Counted from the stretch's first letter, positions 20,444-59,954 are shown. The stretch is 64,000 nt of DNA from an archaeon (GCA_024276825.1 JAJRWI010000010.1:1-64000), one strand, 5' to 3'. A program made the numbers and translations. The notes: generated by a model not told the origin, from the sequence alone.

Positions 20444-21313
20444 TCATTCAAGATCGAGAAAGTCTTCATCAAAGTCGCCATCGTCCGCCTCTTCAATCTC
20501 GGGAAGAGCATCAAGCAGGTCATCAATGAGGGGACGCAATCGTCTACGTGTACTCTTGGGAATATCCCACATCATCTGTTCTGCTCTCTCTACTACTTCG
20601 CGGGCAATCTCAAGAATCTCAGCATCCAGGTAATATTGAGAGGCTTCAACAAAGCATTCAGCAGCCTTTTTCAGGTTTCCTCGATTCTCAGCAATCTCTC
20701 CGAGATATGAGAGGGCGTCGGCCATGCCTGCCTTGTCGTCTAATTCGCGATATATCTTGAGGGCTTTCTTGAAAGTCTTCTCCGCATTCTCAAAATCTTC
20801 ACGTTCTTGATACGCGTTGCCTATATCCATCAGTGCGACTGCCACTCCCATCTGGTTGCCAATTGCCTTATAGGCCCTCTGTGCCTTCTTGAAGAGTTCC
20901 ATGGCACCGTCAAAATCACCCTGACCCAAGGTTGCCAGTGCAATTCCATAAACTGCATCCGCTGACCCTGCCTTGTTGCCAAGTTTCTGGAACAAGTCCA
21001 TAGCAGCCTTGCATGACTCAATGGCAGCATCCCATTGTTCAAGATTAATCTGAGCCACACCAAGATTGTATAATGTGTCGCTGATGCCAACCTCATCTTT
21101 GTTCTTCTTGTATAGTTTCAATGCCTTTTCAAAACAGGTGAGGGCTTCTTCAAACTCGGCAACTGACATATAGATATTGCCAGCAGAATTGTAGAGTTTT
21201 GCAGCCTCCAGATCTTCACCATTCGACTCGGCAGCAGTGGCCTGTTCAATCAGGCTTGCTGGGTCTGTATCTTCGATGTATTCTTCCTCACTCAATGGGG
21301 TCACCAACGGCAT
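20444..21313 (-). CDS. Tetratricopeptide repeat protein with acidic termini
   Basis: Five to six ~40-aa TPR-like repeats (A..L.N.G..Y......A...F.KAL). Confidence 0.85.
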   Translation of the reverse strand: MPLVTPLSEEEYIEDTDPASLIEQATAAESNGEDLEAAKLYNSAGNIYMSVAEFEEALTCFEKALKLYKKNKDEVGISDTLYNLGVAQINLEQWDAAIESCKAAMDLFQKLGNKAGSADAVYGIALATLGQGDFDGAMELFKKAQRAYKAIGNQMGVAVALMDIGNAYQEREDFENAEKTFKKALKIYRELDDKAGMADALSYLGEIAENRGNLKKAAECFVEASQYYLDAEILEIAREVVERAEQMMWDIPKSTRRRLRPLIDDLLDALPEIEEADDGDFDEDFLDLE

Positions 21314-21357
21314 TATAAAATCGTAATAAGTATGCTTTTGATTCTTTCTCCATGACG

Positions 21358-22059
21358 CTATTTCTTAAGAATGAGTACAGGATTCTCTAAAAATTGTCGA
21401 ACATTGTCTTGAACAACAAATCGCTTGTCGCCCACATCAACTTCAAGCAGTTTTCGTAGTTCGAACTTTCTCAAGTATCCAACTGCAACCTGTTTGGAGA
21501 TATTCAGGTCTTTGGTGAGGAGTTCAAGGCCATTTGGTTTTCCGCTGTGTTCAGCGAATTTTTGGAAGACAGAACTCCATTGCATCATTATCAGATAGAG
21601 TAGAGTACGAAGCATACTATCAACATTCTGCCCTGTTTCACCGGAGCATGGTATCATTGGCAATCCAGCAACAAAGCTCATGCTTTTTTGCAGTTCTTCT
21701 ACTGGGCGGGCAGATCCTATATCTTGTTTATTTGCAGCCACGACACAGGGCACACCAGGCAGAAAGAAGGGGACTTCTCTAAAGAACAATTTTGCTCTGG
21801 CATCAGATTCTGGATCGCTCGAGTCAACGACAAATATGAGACCGTCGGCCCCCTCACTCAGGATTTTTCGCATAGTCGTGAAACGCAGCAAGCCGGGGGT
21901 TCCGAACAGGAACACATTCATTCCATTAATGTTAGCAACTCCATGGTCCATAGCAATAGTAGTTCCATTCACTTCAACATTGATGCAATTGCCATTAGTA
22001 ATGTTATGAATTATAGTGCTCTTACCAGATTCAAAGGGGCCCGTAACAACTATCTTCAT
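21358..22059 (-). CDS. Small GTPase (ATP_bind_1/MglA-related) with C-terminal winged-helix-like domain
   Basis: GPFESGKST, TTIAMDHG, FGTPG, NKQD, CSG motifs. Confidence 0.85.
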   Translation of the reverse strand: MKIVVTGPFESGKSTIIHNITNGNCINVEVNGTTIAMDHGVANINGMNVFLFGTPGLLRFTTMRKILSEGADGLIFVVDSSDPESDARAKLFFREVPFFLPGVPCVVAANKQDIGSARPVEELQKSMSFVAGLPMIPCSGETGQNVDSMLRTLLYLIMMQWSSVFQKFAEHSGKPNGLELLTKDLNISKQVAVGYLRKFELRKLLEVDVGDKRFVVQDNVRQFLENPVLILKK

Positions 22060-22238: not shown

Positions 22239-22318
22239 AGAGACCGGCTGCTTGCGGCAGCAATCCTCAATCCTCCGTCCACAGGGGTTTAGGAAGATAT
22301 CACGGGAATTCGGTCTCT
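22239..22318 (-). promoter_or_regulatory. Eukaryote-like SECIS element overlapping the selD 3' end
   Basis: G-UGAU AUCUUCC U AAA CCCCUGUGG AC GGAGGAU UGAG: RUGA/GA core, 7-bp helix II, apical AAA; closed by AAUU/GAUU and AGAGACCG/CGGUCUCU. Confidence 0.7.
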
Positions 22319-23346
22319 AGAATGATGACACCTTCTGCAAGCCGTGCATTTGGCTCGTCAGAGGGTCGGATGACTTTGCCAACTGTCCAGCATGGCAGAT
22401 CCTTGCTCTTGAGAAAATCCTTGAATGGTTCAACATGCTCAGGCTTAAGAAATACAAGCATGCCACCCGCTGTTTCCGCGCCATAGCCTTGAGTGAGTTT
22501 GTGACCAAAGAACTCAGCAAGCTGGGCAGTCCCGGATATTATGGGAAGGGTGTCGATTATCACATCAACCCCACTGAGAGCAGCAACATTACTGGCATGC
22601 CCCAGTATTCCAAACCCTGTCACATCGGTGGCCGCATGAACACCTACCGATCTCATTGCCTGAGCAACCTCTAGATTGCTGGTAGTCATTATTTTTACAG
22701 CAGTGTCGTGCATCCGACGAAGCTCTGTTTCGTTGAACCTCTCAAGAAGGGCTTCACGCTTATCATTCTGCAGGTCCCTGTAAGACCGCATAGCGGGCTG
22801 AATTCCGAGTGGCTTTGTGAGTAGAACAACATCTCCGACCCGTGCACCTTTAGAGTATATGATCTCAGACGGGTGGGCCATTCCAAGACAAACACCGCCA
22901 AAGACTGGAACGGGGTTCGTGATTGTCTGGCCACCTGTCACTCTAGATTTGAGGGACTCCATGAATGCACACATTCCCCTAAGAACCCCAGCAGGAATAT
23001 CCTCGGGAATGTTTCGCGGATAGGCCAGAAGAGCCTGCAGCGAGAGAATCTCTGTTGCTCCCATTGCAAACACGTCGTTTGTTGCATTACACGCTACTAT
23101 CTGACCCTGAATATAGGGGTCGTCATGAATCGGGGTGAAGACATCGATGTTCTCTACGATAGCCACATTGTCATTGATCTGATGCACTGAGGCATCATCA
23201 CCATATTCATCATGGCACACCAGATCGATTGGGATAAGGCCCGAGGCATGAAGGAGTCTGACAAGGTCTGCCTGCTTGACCTTGCAACTTCATCCATGGG
23301 TTTTGACCATTGCAGTCAGGCGAATGTCTTTCAACTCTGTGGTCAT
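22300..23346 (-). CDS. selD: Selenide, water dikinase (selenophosphate synthetase), selenoprotein with Sec19
   Basis: ATG 23346 preceded by GGAGGT; MTTELKDIRLTAMVKTHG-UGA-SCK in frame with GDDA, DVFTP, DVFAMG, TDVTGFGILGH, ETAGG; UGA at 23290-23292. Confidence 0.93.
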
Positions 23347-36964: not shown

Positions 36965-37495
36965 CTAGGAGAGTGTCGCCTTGGCGAGCATCTTGAATGC
37001 TTCGTGAACATTTTCTCCTGTCAGCGCACTTGTTTCAAGGTATCCCATCAGATTGTGAGCCTCAACGAATTGCCTGCCCATATCTTCAGTTATCACACGA
37101 TCCTCAACAAGATCAACCTTGTTTGCAATCAGAATGATTGGAATTCGCTGATTCAACGCGCTCTCGGTTTCTTCGATCCATTTTGGCAGCTCCTTGAATG
37201 TGCTCTTACGAGTCACGTCAAACACCAACAGTGCACCCTTAGACCCTTTGTAATAAGAACTACGAATGAAGTCGAACCTCTCCTGTCCAGCAAGGTCCCA
37301 CACGAGAAGCTTCACCTTTAGAGGGTTTCCTGTAGAGTCAGTGACCTCTACCACTTTTACAGCGAATTGCGAACCTATTGTGACTATATATTTGTCTGAG
37401 AATTTATTAGTCAGGAACCTGTTGACAATGGCGGTCTTTCCACTGCCCCCAGCTCCTATCATCACTACTTTTCGCATCAGGTCAAATTCAGACAT
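36965..37495 (-). CDS. Rab-like small GTPase
   Basis: GAGGSGKT, TIG, WDLAGQERF, YYKGS.GALLVFDVT, NKVDL, ETSA; no C-terminal prenylation Cys. Confidence 0.9.
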   Translation of the reverse strand: MSEFDLMRKVVMIGAGGSGKTAIVNRFLTNKFSDKYIVTIGSQFAVKVVEVTDSTGNPLKVKLLVWDLAGQERFDFIRSSYYKGSKGALLVFDVTRKSTFKELPKWIEETESALNQRIPIILIANKVDLVEDRVITEDMGRQFVEAHNLMGYLETSALTGENVHEAFKMLAKATLS

Positions 37496-53031: not shown

Positions 53032-53580
53032 TTACCCAGTCCCCCTAGAGGGATAAGTGAGTTTGATCTGAAACTGGCACATATTTGCACCCATGGACAT
53101 GCACTGTGTTTCTTCAACAGTCAGCTTTTCATACACGATTCGATTCCAGTCTGTCAGATATTCAAGAACTGCCTCAATGAATCCTTTTAGAAAATAGCAG
53201 GAGGGCTCTGTGCTCTCAAGGCCTGCTGCATATGGATTGTCCGCAATGTCTATGATTGCCTCTTCATCAAGCCATAACTTATAGAGTTTTGAGATCTTGA
53301 TATCACCAAATGGCACAATTAGATTCTCGAGGGCCATTTTGATGAATTCAATTATCCCCTTAAAATCACCAGGTGGCTTTTGTTTTCCAATCTTGAAATA
53401 TTCTGTCTGAGCCTGAAGACCTGCCAGACGACCTGCAGCGTAATAGAGGTCACGCACTCTATCAGGAAACATCACTGCAATTCGATTACCAAGAATTGTC
53501 CAAGTCTTGCTGAAGAACGCACGCATTGTTTCGCGTTCCTTTAATTTTCCTGTCCACCATTGGAACACTTTGTCTGTCAT
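53032..53580 (-). CDS. V4R domain protein
   Basis: LYYAAG..AG, P.C.F.KG, EETQCMSMGANMCQF. Confidence 0.85.
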   Translation of the reverse strand: MTDKVFQWWTGKLKERETMRAFFSKTWTILGNRIAVMFPDRVRDLYYAAGRLAGLQAQTEYFKIGKQKPPGDFKGIIEFIKMALENLIVPFGDIKISKLYKLWLDEEAIIDIADNPYAAGLESTEPSCYFLKGFIEAVLEYLTDWNRIVYEKLTVEETQCMSMGANMCQFQIKLTYPSRGTG

Positions 53581-53676
53581 CTTGCAATCTCCTACGTGAA
53601 TTTAAGATGCATTGCTCGTTAAATGCTTTATGAGGACAAATAGCAATGTTCATTGCATCTGAAGCTTACTGTTTGG

Positions 53677-54150
53677 TTATGCGAGACGCACATTCCAAGT
53701 GCACATATCCGCACCAGTGGCCCGGCTCATTTCTTGGAAAACATTTGCTTGAACTCCCTTGAACTCAAGGATTGCCTGAAGAATTCCACTAAATATCTCA
53801 CAATATCCAAAACCACGCATACCCTCAAGATTGACATCTTGACACCAGATGCAGTTCTTATCCGAAACCCTTACTGATCCTCTAGCAGTGTCCATGTCTA
53901 TCTCAGACGCTCTCTTATCGTACAAGGCTCGAAAGACAACATCAATCAGTTTAGCGACATCCTCTCGAGTTGTGACCGTTTCTTTGGTCTTGCTCTCAAT
54001 GTCAGTGCTCATATAAAGCTGAAAGCCAAGTTCTTTGCCTAGGTCTCGAAGCTTCTGGTTAGCCTCTTCAACACTGTTGGTTTCTGAGAGAGTTTGCTCA
54101 ACAATATGAGAATATAGACTTACTAGTATGGGATTCTCAATCTTTGCCAT
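53677..54150 (-). CDS. TRAPPC3/Bet3-like (V4R-fold) protein
   Basis: LY..IV......VEE.N.KL..LG..LG, NCIWC, YC.IFSGIL.A.LE. Confidence 0.75.
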   Translation of the reverse strand: MAKIENPILVSLYSHIVEQTLSETNSVEEANQKLRDLGKELGFQLYMSTDIESKTKETVTTREDVAKLIDVVFRALYDKRASEIDMDTARGSVRVSDKNCIWCQDVNLEGMRGFGYCEIFSGILQAILEFKGVQANVFQEMSRATGADMCTWNVRLA

Positions 54151-54174
54151 TGCTACGTCTCACCTGTAGTAGTT

Positions 54175-55149
54175 CTATATGGTCCTTCCAATCATTTTCA
54201 TGCCATATTTGCGATAACGAGCAAGAGTCTGAATCACTTTGGGATGGGGAATTCCTGTGATCTCTGCAATCTGCTCGGGAGTTTTAGTGCCATCACATAG
54301 TCGGACAATCTCAATGTCGGGAGCTTGCACTTTATCTAATGGCCCTTCATATTTTGGACATTTGATAAATCGCCCCATTGTTGTTTTTGAAGTTTCAGCT
54401 TCACTTTCTGCCTTATGAACTGGGACCTCTATGATCTTTCTCACAGCAGCCCATTTTAACAAGTTTACAACACGTTCTGTTGGTTGAAACATTGAATCAG
54501 CAATCTTTTCGACAGACAGGATCCCATCCACAAGCATTAGGACATCAAATCCGAAGTTGCGATGTGCTTGTTTCATTTCTTCATATAGGCTCGATTCCAG
54601 TGATAATGCAGAGGCATATGCAGGCCCTCGCTTTGGAACAGTGGAAGGAGTGATGATGAAAGACTCTGGACTTAGTTCAGGCTCTTCAGTGACTGGCTCT
54701 GCGGCAGGGGTGGAGACCTTGGTCACAGCAAGAGATTCTGGTGCTGTAGCAGCAGCTTTCATTGCAATGCTCTCAAGAACCTGCAGATTGTCTTCTGATG
54801 ACTCTTCAAAGTCATCCGGAGGTGGTGGTAAGACACTTCCTTCTAGAAGACGCAATACATTCTTTGTCTTTGCAATTGCAAGACCCAGCTGCAATTCAGG
54901 GACATATAGAACTGTCAATATCCAGTTGTCATCAACTGGCGATAGTACAACAAGACCCTGATCAGTATCAATAGTCATCAAGCGTAGGTCAGACTTGTAA
55001 AGGTTGATACTGTCTTTTACTCGTGGAAACAACTCATCAGGAAAAGAAAAGCTAACAAATGGTCGCCCCTGTTTTGTCATGAGAGAGTATCCAATCACTT
55101 GTTCGTCAAACCGAAGTTTTGAGAGAGCTCGTTCCAAGTCGCCGGACAT
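54175..55149 (-). CDS. Roadblock-like N-domain + Pro/acidic linker + two winged-helix-like domains
   Basis: V.GY.L....G.P, W.L.V.Y....LG..I roadblock-like pattern; VDG..SV..IA and CDG.KT..QIA; paralog of 57111-58028. Confidence 0.6.
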   Translation of the reverse strand: MSGDLERALSKLRFDEQVIGYSLMTKQGRPFVSFSFPDELFPRVKDSINLYKSDLRLMTIDTDQGLVVLSPVDDNWILTVLYVPELQLGLAIAKTKNVLRLLEGSVLPPPPDDFEESSEDNLQVLESIAMKAAATAPESLAVTKVSTPAAEPVTEEPELSPESFIITPSTVPKRGPAYASALSLESSLYEEMKQAHRNFGFDVLMLVDGILSVEKIADSMFQPTERVVNLLKWAAVRKIIEVPVHKAESEAETSKTTMGRFIKCPKYEGPLDKVQAPDIEIVRLCDGTKTPEQIAEITGIPHPKVIQTLARYRKYGMKMIGRTI

Positions 55150-55333
55150 GATATTGCACCTATCTTGAAATAGACTGACCTACTTATACATACTTTCTTT
55201 CTAAAGGATTGATTAAAGGATTGTGGTCGTGTATTCATCCATCTTGGAGCCTTAATAACGCTCGAATTTATGCAATTTAGAAAGCATTAAGAGAGTATTC
55301 ATTTGTGAGGCTGCTAAGAAGGTTGTCAACAAC

Positions 55334-55885
55334 ATGAGAAACTTCCTTTCAGCTCTGATCGCACTTAACATTGGGTCATTAATGGTAATGGGTCTTGCAA
55401 GTCAACATTATCCAGATACATTTGAGCCGATTGCATTTCTGCTGAATGGAAGTGGTGTGTTGATGACCCTGGTGGACGGTCTTTTGTCATTCAGATTTGA
55501 TGCTCTTGTTCTCAGCGCTTGGCTGGCCATGGGCTTAATAGTTGGACTGACTGCCGAGTCAAGATGGAACTCTGTAAGAACTGTGATCTGGATTGGGGTC
55601 ATCATGGCGATTTGTAATCTTGCTGCAGTGTTTTTAATCAACCCTGGACTTTGGAGCTCGAATCAAGTCGAGAGAAACATACTTATAATTGCCCAGCTAA
55701 TCAAAGGGCCGTTCATTGCATTATTCACTCTCATTACGGCTTTACCAATAATGGCCATAATTGGACGGGCCAAGAAACCAATGCAGATTGAACCCAAGCC
55801 AATTATAACAGTCTGCGAGTGCGGAGCAGTGTTCAAGTCAAAGCCAGCAATCTGTTCAGAATGTGGTAGGGTTCTAAATGATTAG
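55334..55885 (+). CDS. Membrane protein with C-terminal Zn ribbon
   Basis: About 4 TM; CECG...CSECG. Confidence 0.7.
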   Translation: MRNFLSALIALNIGSLMVMGLASQHYPDTFEPIAFLLNGSGVLMTLVDGLLSFRFDALVLSAWLAMGLIVGLTAESRWNSVRTVIWIGVIMAICNLAAVFLINPGLWSSNQVERNILIIAQLIKGPFIALFTLITALPIMAIIGRAKKPMQIEPKPIITVCECGAVFKSKPAICSECGRVLND

Positions 55886-56032
55886 GTTCATGCACAGCAT
55901 TAAGTCGGCAAAGAAGGGAGCATGATTTGAATATGGTACTCTGAACAAAGATAATTACAGCTCAGTAGAGTTCAGCCTATTTCATACTGACTTTACTGAA
56001 CTGAGGTTTGCTTTACCACTGATTCAATTGGA

Positions 56033-56536
56033 TTAACGTTCACGTGTTATTGCGCCACCCAGCAGGCCACCAATGACAGCTGCGATTCCAGGATAAAGAC
56101 ACCCTTGAAATGTGACTTGCATGAGTATCATAGACTCAGTGCCGAACAGGTTCATAATATCACCATATGGTTGAATGAAGAATACCAGCAGCCACATTAG
56201 TAGCGAGCCTATAAACACTGCAAAGAGTGAGGAAAAAATACCCTGAGGAATGCCGCGTGATAACAGGCCCGCAATGAGTCCTGCAATCCCCCAAGACAGC
56301 CATGTAAGGACGGTCGTATGTGTAGCGCCAACATGAATCTGAGCGCCTAGATAAGGAGGATAGAGAACAGTTCCAACGATGGCCAATCGTAATTCAAGAT
56401 CGCTGTAATTCAAGAAATCGGTGACAATATCGGGACTGACAACTTCTGCAGGCATCAGTAATCCCAGAGTAAGAATCAAGAAGGCAAAAGCAAAAGCAAC
56501 TATGAGACCGATTAAAGCAGATATTCCTTGGTTCAT
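56033..56536 (-). CDS. Hypothetical membrane protein (4-5 TM)
   Basis: Hydrophobic ORF with Gly-rich helices; GGAGG RBS. Confidence 0.7.
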   Translation of the reverse strand: MNQGISALIGLIVAFAFAFLILTLGLLMPAEVVSPDIVTDFLNYSDLELRLAIVGTVLYPPYLGAQIHVGATHTTVLTWLSWGIAGLIAGLLSRGIPQGIFSSLFAVFIGSLLMWLLVFFIQPYGDIMNLFGTESMILMQVTFQGCLYPGIAAVIGGLLGGAITRER

Positions 56537-56603
56537 TTAATTCCTCCTTTTGATTATTGTCTTTATAGAGTAGAGCTATTTATCATTATTCAATTTTATT
56601 TAA

Positions 56604-57110
56604 TCAGACCAGCTGGCGAATTGTCCAAGTACAGACTTCATCTCCAAGAGCACGGCAAGACTCTTGATAGGTATCACCCTTGAAACCTCTAAGGTCTAGA
56701 ACTGCCTTGAAAACCCCACTAATAAGATTGCAGTACTGAAGACCAGGCATGTCAGTGATCTGAACGCCTTGGCATAGTACACAGTTCTCATCAGAGAACT
56801 TGATTGTATTTTTATCTTCACTTATCCATACATTTGTGAATTCTCGACCAGAGTTCACTTTATAGGCAAGTTGTAATGTTGAAGCAAACTCATGAAAGGC
56901 TGCTGCATGCTTGCGAATCCGCTCAGCATAGTCCATTAGCAGATGCTCGCCTACTTTGAACCCGATGTTCTTCAGCTTCAGATTTATCTCATCAACGTTA
57001 GAACTGCTCTGAATCAGAAGATTCAGGAGTTCTCTGTAAGTCGCTTGAAAGAGCGGTTTTGAAACCTTATCTATTTTCAATGTCCACGCTAGTTTTCCTT
57101 TGACACCCAT
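56604..57110 (-). CDS. TRAPPC3/Bet3-like protein
   Basis: KVSKPLFQATYRELL..., VDEINLKLKNIGFKVGEHLLMDY, YCNLISGVFKAVL closely follow eukaryotic Bet3 helices. Confidence 0.8.
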   Translation of the reverse strand: MGVKGKLAWTLKIDKVSKPLFQATYRELLNLLIQSSSNVDEINLKLKNIGFKVGEHLLMDYAERIRKHAAAFHEFASTLQLAYKVNSGREFTNVWISEDKNTIKFSDENCVLCQGVQITDMPGLQYCNLISGVFKAVLDLRGFKGDTYQESCRALGDEVCTWTIRQLV

Positions 57111-58028
57111 TTATTTGACCTCCACATCACGCATTATTATTCTAAGCGTTTTTCCACGGTAGGGAATGATTGATTGTAGAGCTTTGAAGTAGGGAATGTT
57201 CAGTTCTTTTGCGATGTCTTGAAGAGTTCGTGTGCCATCGCAGAGTTCCAATATGGGCCGATGTTCCTTCTTTGCTTTCTTTATCTCCCCTTCAAAGAGT
57301 GGCAGTTCCACAATCTCTCTCATTCCAGGAGCCTGTTCTTTGGGACACTCAACATCAAGAACATTCTTTAAAACACACCATTCAACCACTGAGATGATGA
57401 TCTCTACTCTCTTAGCAAGTATTTCAGCAATCCGAAACACGGTGCGTACATCATCCACCATTAGAAGCACATCAATCCCAACATTGTGAAACTTGGAAGT
57501 CATTTCGTTATACAGAGGGCTTCCAATTCTGGACGCTTCATTGTACATGCTTGCCTTACGAACAACACATCCATGAGTCACCTTGATGTCGACAGCTGGC
57601 TCTTCAGAAGGTTGTTCAACCTCAGGAGCCGCCTGCATTTCTTCTACGGTTATCTCATTATCTTCGGGAGTTGAAACAACTGCTTCAACCTTCACTTTTT
57701 TGGGTGGTGGAGGTAACTCCGCGTTGCCGAGGGATTCAATGACATTTTTAGTGCGTTGTAGAGCGACACCAAGAGACACATCAGACATGAATAATACTGC
57801 AAGCACCCAGTTCTCGTCCACCCTTGCCAGAACAACTGTTCCTTGAGATGTTATGACATTCATGAGCTTTAGCGAGGATGAATGGATCTCTAATGTGTCC
57901 TTAATCGTTGGGAGTGTGTCTTCGGGGAGAGAAAATGCAAGGAATGGTTGACCGTCATTTGTTAGAAGAGCATACCCACTCACAGACTCGTCATAACGAA
58001 GCTTTGTGAGTGCACGCTCTAAAGACAT
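57111..58028 (-). CDS. Roadblock-like N-domain + linker + two winged-helix-like domains
   Basis: Paralog of 54175-55149 (LERAL.KLR.DE.V.GY, LPPPP, DVL..VD, LCDGT). Confidence 0.6.
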   Translation of the reverse strand: MSLERALTKLRYDESVSGYALLTNDGQPFLAFSLPEDTLPTIKDTLEIHSSSLKLMNVITSQGTVVLARVDENWVLAVLFMSDVSLGVALQRTKNVIESLGNAELPPPPKKVKVEAVVSTPEDNEITVEEMQAAPEVEQPSEEPAVDIKVTHGCVVRKASMYNEASRIGSPLYNEMTSKFHNVGIDVLLMVDDVRTVFRIAEILAKRVEIIISVVEWCVLKNVLDVECPKEQAPGMREIVELPLFEGEIKKAKKEHRPILELCDGTRTLQDIAKELNIPYFKALQSIIPYRGKTLRIIMRDVEVK

Positions 58029-58087
58029 CAATACCTACTCCGCGGCACCTTATATTAGCAATCCCTTAAGAGGATTGCTCGGAATTA

Positions 58088-59170
58088 CTATATTAATTCT
58101 TTTAGAAACTTAAATACGTCATTGTTAGAGGGATGGTCTGCATTGATTGACGAAACATAGAGGGCAGCCACAGCATTTGCAAGCGTCAGACGTTCAACGT
58201 CCGATAGCTCTGTGATTGTTGCAAGGATGTCGCCAGCATTCCACGAGTCACCAGCACCACATTGCACATGGGATTCAGCCATAAAAGTTGGCACTCTTAT
58301 TGTTCTGTCATCTTTGAATGTCGCAGAGAATTGCAGGGTATGTAGATCGACACGGACAGCAGTTTCTTTTGATATCAATTCAGCCGCTTCCGATGCAATC
58401 TCCAGATCACTTGTTGCATCACGCCATTTGTCATTGTTTGTGAGTATTCTTGCAATCCAGCCAGCTTCATTCTCATTAAGGCTGATAATGTCTACGAGCT
58501 CCGCATTGAGTGTGGATTTCACAAGTCGGGTTATGGCCTTAAGGTTTCCAGAAGGGTCGCCAATGTCCATGAAAGTGAGGGCATTCGAATTTGACCTCAC
58601 ATAAGTGAATATTTCTTCTGCAAGATATGATGCGTTCTTGTTATGATTCAAACATAATAAAGCGACAAGGCTACTCTTGTTAATTGCATCCAGATCACTT
58701 GGGGCAAGGTCACCAAACGAAAAGTCAGCTGCAGACCCGCTATCGCTAACCATTAAATTAACGGGACGCCCCTTATGTTTGACCTCGATAGACACGGTGG
58801 ATGACAGTCTTCCATCAGTCTTCACATGACTAAGATCTAGCTCAGGAGATACTAGGCTCTTCAACAGTAGAAGTCCCTGTGGATTAGTCTTAACTATTAG
58901 TATTGGATGGATTCCAAGGGAGAGAAGGGCCGAGGCCGTATTGACTGAATTGCCCCCGCGACTGATTATCTGACGGGTGCCAATCATGTTTCCGCCGCCT
59001 TGTTCAGCGAGAAGTTTCAGAGACTCTATGAATGCATCAAGGCTTTCAGCAATCACAAAATGATCAAGAAAGAAATCAGGAAGAATCACAGGAGGTGGGA
59101 CAGCAGGAGGTTCTTGAAGTATTGTAAAGAGCCGGGAGTAGTCCAGCTCTATCACCTCATTGAAATTCAT
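58088..59170 (-). CDS. PfkB/ribokinase family kinase
   Basis: GGNSVNTA..L..LG, SLNENEA, GAGDSWNAG. Confidence 0.85.
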   Translation of the reverse strand: MNFNEVIELDYSRLFTILQEPPAVPPPVILPDFFLDHFVIAESLDAFIESLKLLAEQGGGNMIGTRQIISRGGNSVNTASALLSLGIHPILIVKTNPQGLLLLKSLVSPELDLSHVKTDGRLSSTVSIEVKHKGRPVNLMVSDSGSAADFSFGDLAPSDLDAINKSSLVALLCLNHNKNASYLAEEIFTYVRSNSNALTFMDIGDPSGNLKAITRLVKSTLNAELVDIISLNENEAGWIARILTNNDKWRDATSDLEIASEAAELISKETAVRVDLHTLQFSATFKDDRTIRVPTFMAESHVQCGAGDSWNAGDILATITELSDVERLTLANAVAALYVSSINADHPSNNDVFKFLKELI

Positions 59171-59613
59171 GATACTTTTTTGAAGGCCGCCTTGACCATC
59201 GCAGTCAGACGCTCTTCATCAATACCAGTCTTGTTTGCTGTCTTGGAGATGTCACAATATGCAAGATCCTCGAGGGATCTGATGCCTGCATCGAATAAGA
59301 GTTGTGCCTCACTCTTCTTCACTGCTCGAAGAGATGACAGTTCTGCAATTACAGCATCCGCATCAATTGTGGAAGTTGCACTACTAACTTCAGCAGCAAA
59401 CTCTTCTAGGTCATTGATATACTGCTTGATGACCTCAATGTTCTCATCGTAGCTTGTCTTTCTTCGAACATCAACAATAAGACCCATTCTACGGGCCTCA
59501 TCAATAGCAAGACCTGCCTCTTCTATCTCGTGCCTGCTGAATCCTCGGCCCCTGCGGTCACGACCTGTGCCAGGCGACTTTACTGTTGGATCTGCAAATA
59601 TGTCATAACTCAT
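59167..59613 (-). CDS. rpl13e: 50S ribosomal protein eL13 fused to a C-terminal helix-hairpin-helix domain
   Basis: R.GRGFS..EI..AGL....AR..G..VD.RRKT...N; C-terminal A..L..AGI.SLEDLA......GI; start revised to ATG 59613. Confidence 0.85.
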   Translation of the reverse strand: MSYDIFADPTVKSPGTGRDRRGRGFSRHEIEEAGLAIDEARRMGLIVDVRRKTSYDENIEVIKQYINDLEEFAAEVSSATSTIDADAVIAELSSLRAVKKSEAQLLFDAGIRSLEDLAYCDISKTANKTGIDEERLTAMVKAAFKKVS

Positions 59614-59954
59614 TGGCTTGCCCACCTGATTCAAGATTCGACCCAATATTGTCCTTATTAAGCTAATGATGAATGATACGTCTTCGAGCTGTCTCAATAA
59701 TTGCATCGTGTAATTCTGCACTCATATTAGAATGAGTTGAGTAGTCCATGTCAGATGTAATGAGTTCATACCCAATTTTCTCAAGAGTGGGTGAGATTCG
59801 CCTGAGGCCTTCAGCAGCAACAGGAACACCAATATTGCTATTGGAGAGGATCTCACAGCCATAGGCTGTGCATCAGAATTTAGTCAGGTCATAAGTTGCA
59901 TTCTCGTGAGGTATGTGAACTGTCCAGACAAAGCATTAACGACCTTTCAGAATT

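Follow-up and report, generated by a model that had tools for sequence, protein, structure and literature searches.

A cluster of seven genes at positions 53032 to 58031 of the archaeal contig GCA_024276825.1 JAJRWI010000010.1 contains, twice and in the same orientation, a gene for a roadblock-winged-helix (RBwH) protein followed by a gene for a Bet3-like protein. In operon A, this pair is followed by the gene for a protein with four to five transmembrane (TM) segments, and in operon B, by the gene for a V4R protein. The stretch of 64,000 nucleotides (nt) analyzed here (positions 1-64000, referred to as the window) corresponds to contig C81 of a 98%-complete genome of 2.9 Mb, and the named close homologs of its proteins come almost entirely from Thorarchaeota. 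We tentatively read the locus as a vertically inherited thorarchaeal cluster of two old sister operons, whose RBwH products would act as dimeric adaptors that couple Bet3/V4R-fold sensors to the control of a small GTPase; taken jointly, these claims have somewhat less than an even chance of being right. Literature searches did not find a description of the RBwH-Bet3 neighborhood, which is apparently an undescribed, conserved pairing of known folds.

The minus strand carries the genes for RBwH_A, Bet3_A, and TM167, and then those for RBwH_B, Bet3_B, and the V4R protein. Between these groups, the TMZn gene occupies the plus strand, convergent with that for TM167 and divergent from that for RBwH_B over a spacer of 184 nt (Table 1). 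The TAA stop codon of RBwH_A directly abuts the ATG of Bet3_A, with a GGAGGT sequence just upstream of the Bet3_A start, and the gap between RBwH_B and Bet3_B is 24 nt, so the genes within each pair are tightly coupled. The cluster is followed on the same strand by genes for a helix-turn-helix (HTH) regulator and an ABC transporter. A look-up of public sequencing runs listed none that contain the locus, RNA runs included. All seven genes had been placed correctly in a preliminary description of this DNA made from the sequence alone, as judged by open reading frame (ORF) calls, except that RBwH_A was started at the ATG that follows its TTG codon. The kinds of proteins that it listed after and between the two units are likewise borne out by the ORFs, hydropathy, and Pfam matches.

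Table 1. Genes of the RBwH-Bet3 cluster and other genes of the window mentioned in the text
Feature	Positions	Strand	Length (aa)	Description
RBwH_A	57111-58031	-	306	TTG start (ATG at 58028 is the next codon); roadblock domain, residues 1-105; LPPPP motif; acidic disordered linker, ~110-150; winged helices wH1, ~151-232, and wH2, ~233-306
Bet3_A	56604-57110	-	168	TRAPPC3/Bet3-like; Pfam TRAPP, 38.2 bits
TM167	56033-56536	-	167	Four to five TM segments by hydropathy; Asgard-restricted hypothetical family
TMZn	55334-55885	+	183	~5 TM segments by hydropathy; C-terminal CxC...CxxC zinc ribbon
RBwH_B	54175-55149	-	324	RBwH_A paralog with identical domain order
Bet3_B	53677-54150	-	157	Sequence ortholog of Thor-TRAPPC3; Pfam TRAPP, 46 bits
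V4R protein	53032-53580	-	182	Third Bet3/V4R superfamily member; Pfam V4R, 52 bits
GTPase and TPR/SNAP-like gene pair	20444-22059	-		
Small GTPase of this pair	21358-22059	-	233	Ortholog of the f2 GTPase
AIR-synthase-related gene	22300-23220			Directly upstream of the GTPase-TPR pair
Ras-family GTPase	36965-37495			"Rab-like GTPase" of the preliminary description
Ribosomal protein L13e homolog	59167-59721	-		Eukaryote/archaea-type

Duplication of the gene pair and its recurrence in Asgard archaea

Both members of the repeated unit are paralogous by sequence: RBwH_A and RBwH_B share 34% identity over their full length (E = 2e-69), and Bet3_A and Bet3_B share 25% (E = 5e-30). The A and B copies form separate clades in the Bet3 tree (SH-aLRT support of 99 and 93) as well as in the RBwH tree (100 and 98). 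Every one of these clades includes every sampled genus, which indicates that the pair was duplicated before the radiation of the family. The duplication suspected in the preliminary description is thus real and old; its timing relative to the split from the sister family f2 is left undecided by both trees. Genes of the TRAPP type are found in all 43 sampled genomes of the two-operon family, and in 40 of them, two copies lie ~3 kb apart on one strand. The order of all seven genes is identical in the 18 genomes, representing 15 genera, that were checked. Clusters of TM167 and TMZn homologs are all archaeal, limited to Asgard members, and unnamed. Two relatives have in-frame stop codons in the A pair, namely, four TAG codons in L025 (G005:C41:23540-24885), three of them in RBwH_A and one in Bet3_A, and a single TAA codon in Bet3_A of L027 (G037:C45); these could reflect pseudogenes, sequencing errors, or recoding.

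In five or six other Asgard families, the gene for a protein with the wH2 module is located directly upstream of a Bet3/V4R-like gene. Family f2 encodes a single RBwH-Bet3-V4R trio, with V4R directly after Bet3 and with unrelated flanking genes. In families f12, f13, f15, and f19, the gene for a protein that ends in the wH2 module is found 7 to 66 nt upstream of a Bet3/V4R-like gene, and f16 provides a weaker case of the same arrangement. The shared wH2 module can be recognized by the signature LCDG..T...IA. The pairing, on whose conservation the preliminary description had staked its proposal, is therefore retained both within the family and in other Asgard families, and what is conserved beside the Bet3-like genes across families is the final winged-helix module rather than the roadblock domain.

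Family f12 is the most instructive, as its RBwH counterpart is split in two. An RB-wH1 protein that lacks wH2 is encoded next to the TM167 homolog and, in four f12 genomes, next to TMZn homologs, so that the membrane-protein genes stay beside the roadblock protein in this second family too; a separate 160-aa wH2 protein is encoded next to a Bet3-like gene on another contig. This split form pairs wH2 with Bet3 and RB-wH1 with the membrane proteins and likely maps the functional links domain by domain. The wH2 module is not exclusive to Bet3, because Bet3/V4R-like neighbors are missing for some of the wH2-module proteins of families f7 and f8, which are encoded near gelsolin-like or unannotated genes instead. 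Among these, the wH2-ending f7 proteins L051:5271-7063 and L052:4916-6811 are preceded by gelsolin-repeat proteins.

Folds and relatives of the encoded proteins

Bet3_A and Bet3_B are the only two TRAPP-family proteins encoded in the genome, and both pass the Pfam TRAPP model (PF04051, cutoff of 27 bits). Bet3_B corresponds to the crystallized thorarchaeal TRAPPC3 protein (Thor-TRAPPC3), whose structures come from SMTZ1-45 (PDB 7YH3) and AB25 (PDB 7YH2) (Tran, Akil, Senju, and Robinson, 2024, Commun Biol 7:273, PMC10933270). It matches these two chains with E values of 1e-78 and 3.6e-75, respectively, and no others at E ≤ 1e-3, which makes it an ortholog of Thor-TRAPPC3 at the level of sequence and agrees with the earlier remark that such thorarchaeal homologs are known; the Bet3 alpha/beta fold and dimerization via the N-terminal helices can be predicted for Bet3_B from 7YH3. 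According to the structural paper, Thor-TRAPPC3 is a homodimer that has internal cavities and a Zn(Cys)4 site, which replaces a hydrogen bond of mouse TRAPPC3, and it is suggested to bind a ligand (PMC10933270). The cysteine sets suited to zinc binding that had been noticed in both Bet3-like proteins prove to be the same four residues. They are kept in 32 of the 33 aligned sequences spanning both paralogs; three of them are invariant, and the fourth is substituted in one sequence.

Bet3_A, an unstudied paralog, matches 7YH3 with an E value of 1.2e-24. It is also the only one of the two that reaches eukaryotic TRAPPC3/Bet3 chains (E values from 3e-9 to 8e-6), in line with the close resemblance to eukaryotic Bet3 that the preliminary description had seen in it, and it appears, by these scores, closer to eukaryotic TRAPPC3 than Bet3_B. 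Its alignment reveals a conserved basic N-terminal extension of 12 residues, and its isoelectric point (pI) is 8.2 versus 4.9 for Bet3_B. The third member of the superfamily encoded in the cluster passes the Pfam V4R model (PF02830, cutoff of 31 bits).

Pfam yields no significant matches for the RBwH proteins; in particular, neither of them matches Robl_LC7 (PF03259) at E ≤ 1. RBwH_A has 280 homologs, of which the named ones are nearly all from Thorarchaeota, and several RBwH orthologs carry the JGI name "Roadblock/LC7/MglB family." The AF2 model of RBwH_A (mean predicted local distance difference test [pLDDT] score of 88) consists of an N-terminal roadblock domain that is joined by a disordered linker to two winged-helix-like domains. 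In this model, the N-terminal domain begins with a helix and has the roadblock order of secondary structure elements (a-bb-a-bbb-a by DSSP). It aligns with LAMTOR2/p14 and an MK-D1 roadblock protein over 103 to 105 residues in the VIA structural search (Z score of 12.9, root mean square deviation [RMSD] of 2.2 to 2.4), and Foldseek supports the same fold at an E value of 4e-7, so that the modeled roadblock assignment is solid. The preliminary description had expected a partner from the roadblock/longin superfamily; the roadblock fold stands, but it differs from the longin/sedlin type of the TRAPP subunits.

Directly after the roadblock domain, at residues 106 to 110, lies an LPPPP motif that is modeled with high confidence. 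Across the A, B, and f2 copies, L106, P107, P109, and P110 are invariant, and P108 is conserved in at least 90%. Gly27 and Pro29 are invariant in both RBwH alignments, whereas Arg70 is nearly invariant only in the A-dominated alignment A1 and not across A and B. The first winged helix of RBwH_A contains the residues His153, Cys155, Cys219, and Cys229. His153, Cys155, and Cys229 are invariant in the A paralogs and Cys219 is found in 12 of 15, with all four absent from the B and f2 copies; they may form an A-specific metal or redox site.

The full-length RBwH_A model aligns end to end with NPRL2/Npr2 chains. To exclude the pull of the roadblock domain on the structural search, residues 150 to 306 were folded alone (pLDDT of 86). 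In the VIA search over 48,161 representative chains, the top match of this C-terminal half was NPRL2 (8fw5_B, Z score of 9.5, RMSD of 2.1 over 69 residues), followed by yeast Npr2 (8adl_S, Z score of 9.2), with aligned lengths of 69 to 71 residues. Generic winged helices, including the DNA binders of the ArsR, MarR, and TFE types that match wH1, scored below these two, with Z scores of 6 to 8. In Foldseek, the top nine matches were all GATOR1/SEACIT chains, albeit weak ones (E values from 9e-3 to 5e-2). The wH2 module also shows weak matches to DUF742.

A small GTPase and the candidate function of the locus

In one f2 genome, the RBwH-Bet3-V4R trio is transcribed divergently from the genes for a small GTPase and a TPR/SNAP-like protein. 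This GTPase matches Arf and MglA chains in the PDB (E values from 6e-9 to 1e-8), and its ortholog in the window, which shares 57% identity with it, is also encoded next to a TPR/SNAP-like gene. Matches to the 233-aa protein were found in 136 of the 201 sampled Asgard genomes, mostly in a single copy. The AIR-synthase-related gene listed in Table 1 has a counterpart in an f16 genome (L040:7741-8772), where it lies directly upstream of tandem Bet3-like genes; this may be a coincidence.

We tentatively favor a reading in which the RBwH proteins are dimeric adaptors, probably of A with B through their roadblock domains, because roadblock domains dimerize as a rule. The partners of the roadblock-wH1 part would be TM167 and TMZn, a small GTPase, or both, and the last winged helix would dock the Bet3/V4R-fold dimers. 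With their cavity and Zn(Cys)4 site, these dimers could sense a hydrophobic ligand or the redox state, and as the output, a small GTPase whose gene lies elsewhere would be controlled. A far more specific version, which we consider improbable, has RBwH_A, RBwH_B, Bet3_A, Bet3_B, and V4R in one membrane-anchored hetero-oligomer, with wH2 as the Bet3 dock, that acts on the 233-aa Asgard GTPase as a guanine nucleotide exchange factor (GEF) or a GTPase-activating protein (GAP). If true, this would be an archaeal assembly of parts that were later separated into TRAPP, with the Bet3 fold, and GATOR1-type regulators, with roadblock/longin domains and winged helices.

Several observations weigh against the adaptor reading. 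The observations cover gene content, folds, paralogy, conservation, and the gene neighborhoods of the single domains, whereas physical contacts among the seven products, membrane attachment, and GAP or GEF activity are what we infer; the predicted complex of RBwH_A with Bet3_A, built from the order-matched alignments A2 and A3, scored 0.14 against a mark of 0.32 and speaks neither for nor against binding. The GTPase adjoins the trio in a single f2 genome, and the link accordingly rests on that one genome. Throughout the two-operon family, the GTPase gene lies ~30 to 43 kb from the cluster, and elsewhere, the distance is 72 to 117 kb or more. No GTPase genes were found within the seven-gene cluster in this family, and according to Tran et al., the GTPase genes of MK-D1 as a rule do not share operons with genes for roadblock, longin, or TRAPPC3 proteins (PMC10933270). 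The basic wH2 may instead bind DNA. The flanking genes are collinear as well, over ~15 kb from GlnA to LysRS in the same 18 genomes, so that synteny inside the family says little about function; L13e is found within a few kilobases of an RBwH or RB-wH1 gene in families f1 and f12, and part of the adjacency may therefore be inherited gene order.

The resemblance to NPRL2 also has its limits. The Pfam models NPR2, NPR3, and HTH_NPRL3 do not match either RBwH protein at E ≤ 1, and the NPR2 model (PF06218) finds nothing at this threshold in the whole genome. A search of 1.84 billion representatives with the profile of alignment A2 returned 78 matches, with full-length relatives confined to three 50% clusters. 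The ten longer matches that were scanned are multi-winged-helix proteins, none of them in an NPR2/NPR3 family, and matches of such distant multi-winged-helix relatives to NPR2, NPR3, or HTH_NPRL3 are only subthreshold. Further, the N-terminal domain of RBwH_A is a roadblock domain rather than a longin (bb-a-bbb-a). Given this domain and the lack of a sequence link to NPRL2/3, the layout is referred to here as NPRL2-like, and the proteins are kept out of that family.

A serious alternative, albeit an unlikely one, is that the locus encodes a transcription regulator that is divided among separate proteins and responds to a ligand or the redox state, in which the Bet3/V4R proteins sense the signal, the RBwH proteins bind DNA through wH2, and the nearby genes are regulated. 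V4R has a precedent as a sensor in MsvR and in XylR/DmpR/PoxR, and a redox switch could reside in the Zn(Cys)4 site. In regulators of the MsvR type, the winged HTH and V4R parts form a single chain, whereas here they are separate proteins. All three Bet3/V4R proteins show matches to the MsvR model (NCBIfam NF053755), limited to its V4R part, but at 16 to 28 bits, these are far under the cutoff of 220. The wH2 domain is basic in both paralogs (pI of 9.2), as suits DNA binding, yet the whole RBwH proteins are acidic (pI of 5.1). Likewise, the wH1 matches to ArsR-, MarR-, and TFE-type DNA binders favor such a regulator but rank below the protein-binding winged-helix domains of NPRL2/Npr2, and the weak matches of wH2 to DUF742 speak against it as well. 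Finally, the HTH regulator and ABC transporter genes downstream of the cluster, which could be its targets, are absent from the f2 trio.

The proposal of the preliminary description was a heteromeric, membrane-tethered proto-TRAPP complex. Spelled out, Bet3_A, Bet3_B, and V4R would form Bet3-fold dimers that flank an RBwH_A/RBwH_B dimer, and the assembly, tethered by the TM proteins, would act as an exchange factor for a Rab-like GTPase. As a hypothesis, it is partly supported. The duplication, the conserved pairing, the TRAPP family membership with the Zn(Cys)4 site, the roadblock fold, and the membrane-protein genes of f12 all fit; three Bet3/V4R-fold and two roadblock-superfamily genes do form one cluster, Bet3_A reaches eukaryotic TRAPPC3/Bet3, the window contains a Ras-family GTPase gene, and Tran et al. 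report a Heimdall protein in which a longin and a TRAPPC3 domain are fused (PMC10933270). What did not hold is a longin partner like Bet5, Trs23, or Trs20, the roadblock domain as the conserved neighbor of Bet3, which turned out to be wH2, and a GTPase in the cluster, as the Rab-like gene lies 16 kb away and is unlinked. In addition, Thor-TRAPPC3 was solved as a homodimer and interpreted by Tran et al. as a ligand binder (PMC10933270), and a search for fused, long forms of Bet3_A (295 to 2,000 aa) found none at E ≤ 1e-3, which is weak evidence. On balance, this complex is improbable. Least likely of all is that the products have no joint function and each acts alone, their adjacency being due to slow decay of gene order: the collinear housekeeping genes (GlnA, L13e, and LysRS) and the presence of L13e near the f12 RB-wH1 gene would fit, but the wH2-Bet3/V4R pair recurs with short gaps among unrelated flanks in at least five other families, which makes inherited adjacency alone unlikely, both gene families are split alike into A and B clades, and RBwH_A and Bet3_A directly adjoin, stop codon to start codon.

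Relation to TRAPP, GATOR1, and roadblock-GTPase systems

The TRAPP core combines Bet3/TRAPPC3, Trs31/C5, and Trs33/C6 with the longins Bet5/C1, Trs23/C4, and Trs20/C2. The locus resembles it in encoding several Bet3-fold paralogs alongside members of the roadblock/longin superfamily; in contrast, the partner here is a roadblock protein with two winged helices, which TRAPP lacks. NPRL2/NPRL3 (Npr2/Npr3) are subunits of GATOR1/SEACIT, the GAP for RagA/Gtr1. Similarly to the RBwH proteins, they are two paralogs, each with an N-terminal domain of the roadblock/longin superfamily followed by winged helices. The RBwH proteins differ from them in the roadblock, rather than longin, topology of this domain, the lack of matches to the respective Pfam families, and the absence of a DEPDC5-like partner.

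The combination of a roadblock domain with a DUF742-like winged helix, based on the weak wH2 matches, is reminiscent of the MglB/DUF742/GTPase systems, and the small GTPase gene adjoining the f2 trio is reminiscent of MglA/MglB. In the actinobacterial conservons, DUF742 accompanies roadblock and GTPase genes (CvnB-CvnC-CvnD), along with a sensor kinase. In contrast to these, RBwH fuses the roadblock domain and the winged helices into one protein, its partner is a Bet3/V4R-fold protein instead of a sensor kinase, and the two-operon family has no adjacent GTPase gene.

The locus bears on how the GTPase regulators of eukaryotes, TRAPP and GATOR1 among them, arose. Their Asgard homologs have so far been studied singly, with partners that could not be read from the genome layout. 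In the passages searched, the Thor-TRAPPC3 paper treats this protein alone and does not mention the genes for Bet3_A, RBwH, V4R, or the membrane proteins (PMC10933270), and a second Asgard cluster of Bet3-fold proteins has been reported to group with TRAPPC5/C6 (2026 preprint). The locus described here names concrete, clonable candidate partners for the crystallized Thor-TRAPPC3, reveals a second Bet3 paralog with scores closer to the eukaryotic protein, and predicts that the last winged helix is the domain that contacts the Bet3 fold.

A candidate longin counterpart of the RBwH proteins is encoded elsewhere in the same genome. The 303-aa product of L050:4542-5453 (contig C19) shows weak longin matches (Intu/Fuz longin_1), and its C-terminal half matches the RBwH double winged helix (hhalign, 96%); the next gene, L050:5526-6821, encodes a 431-aa multi-winged-helix protein. 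An NPRL2-like longin family has been reported from most Thor metagenome-assembled genomes (Liu et al., bioRxiv 10.1101/2020.10.19.343400), and this family may correspond to the gene for the longin and two winged helices on contig C19 rather than to RBwH.

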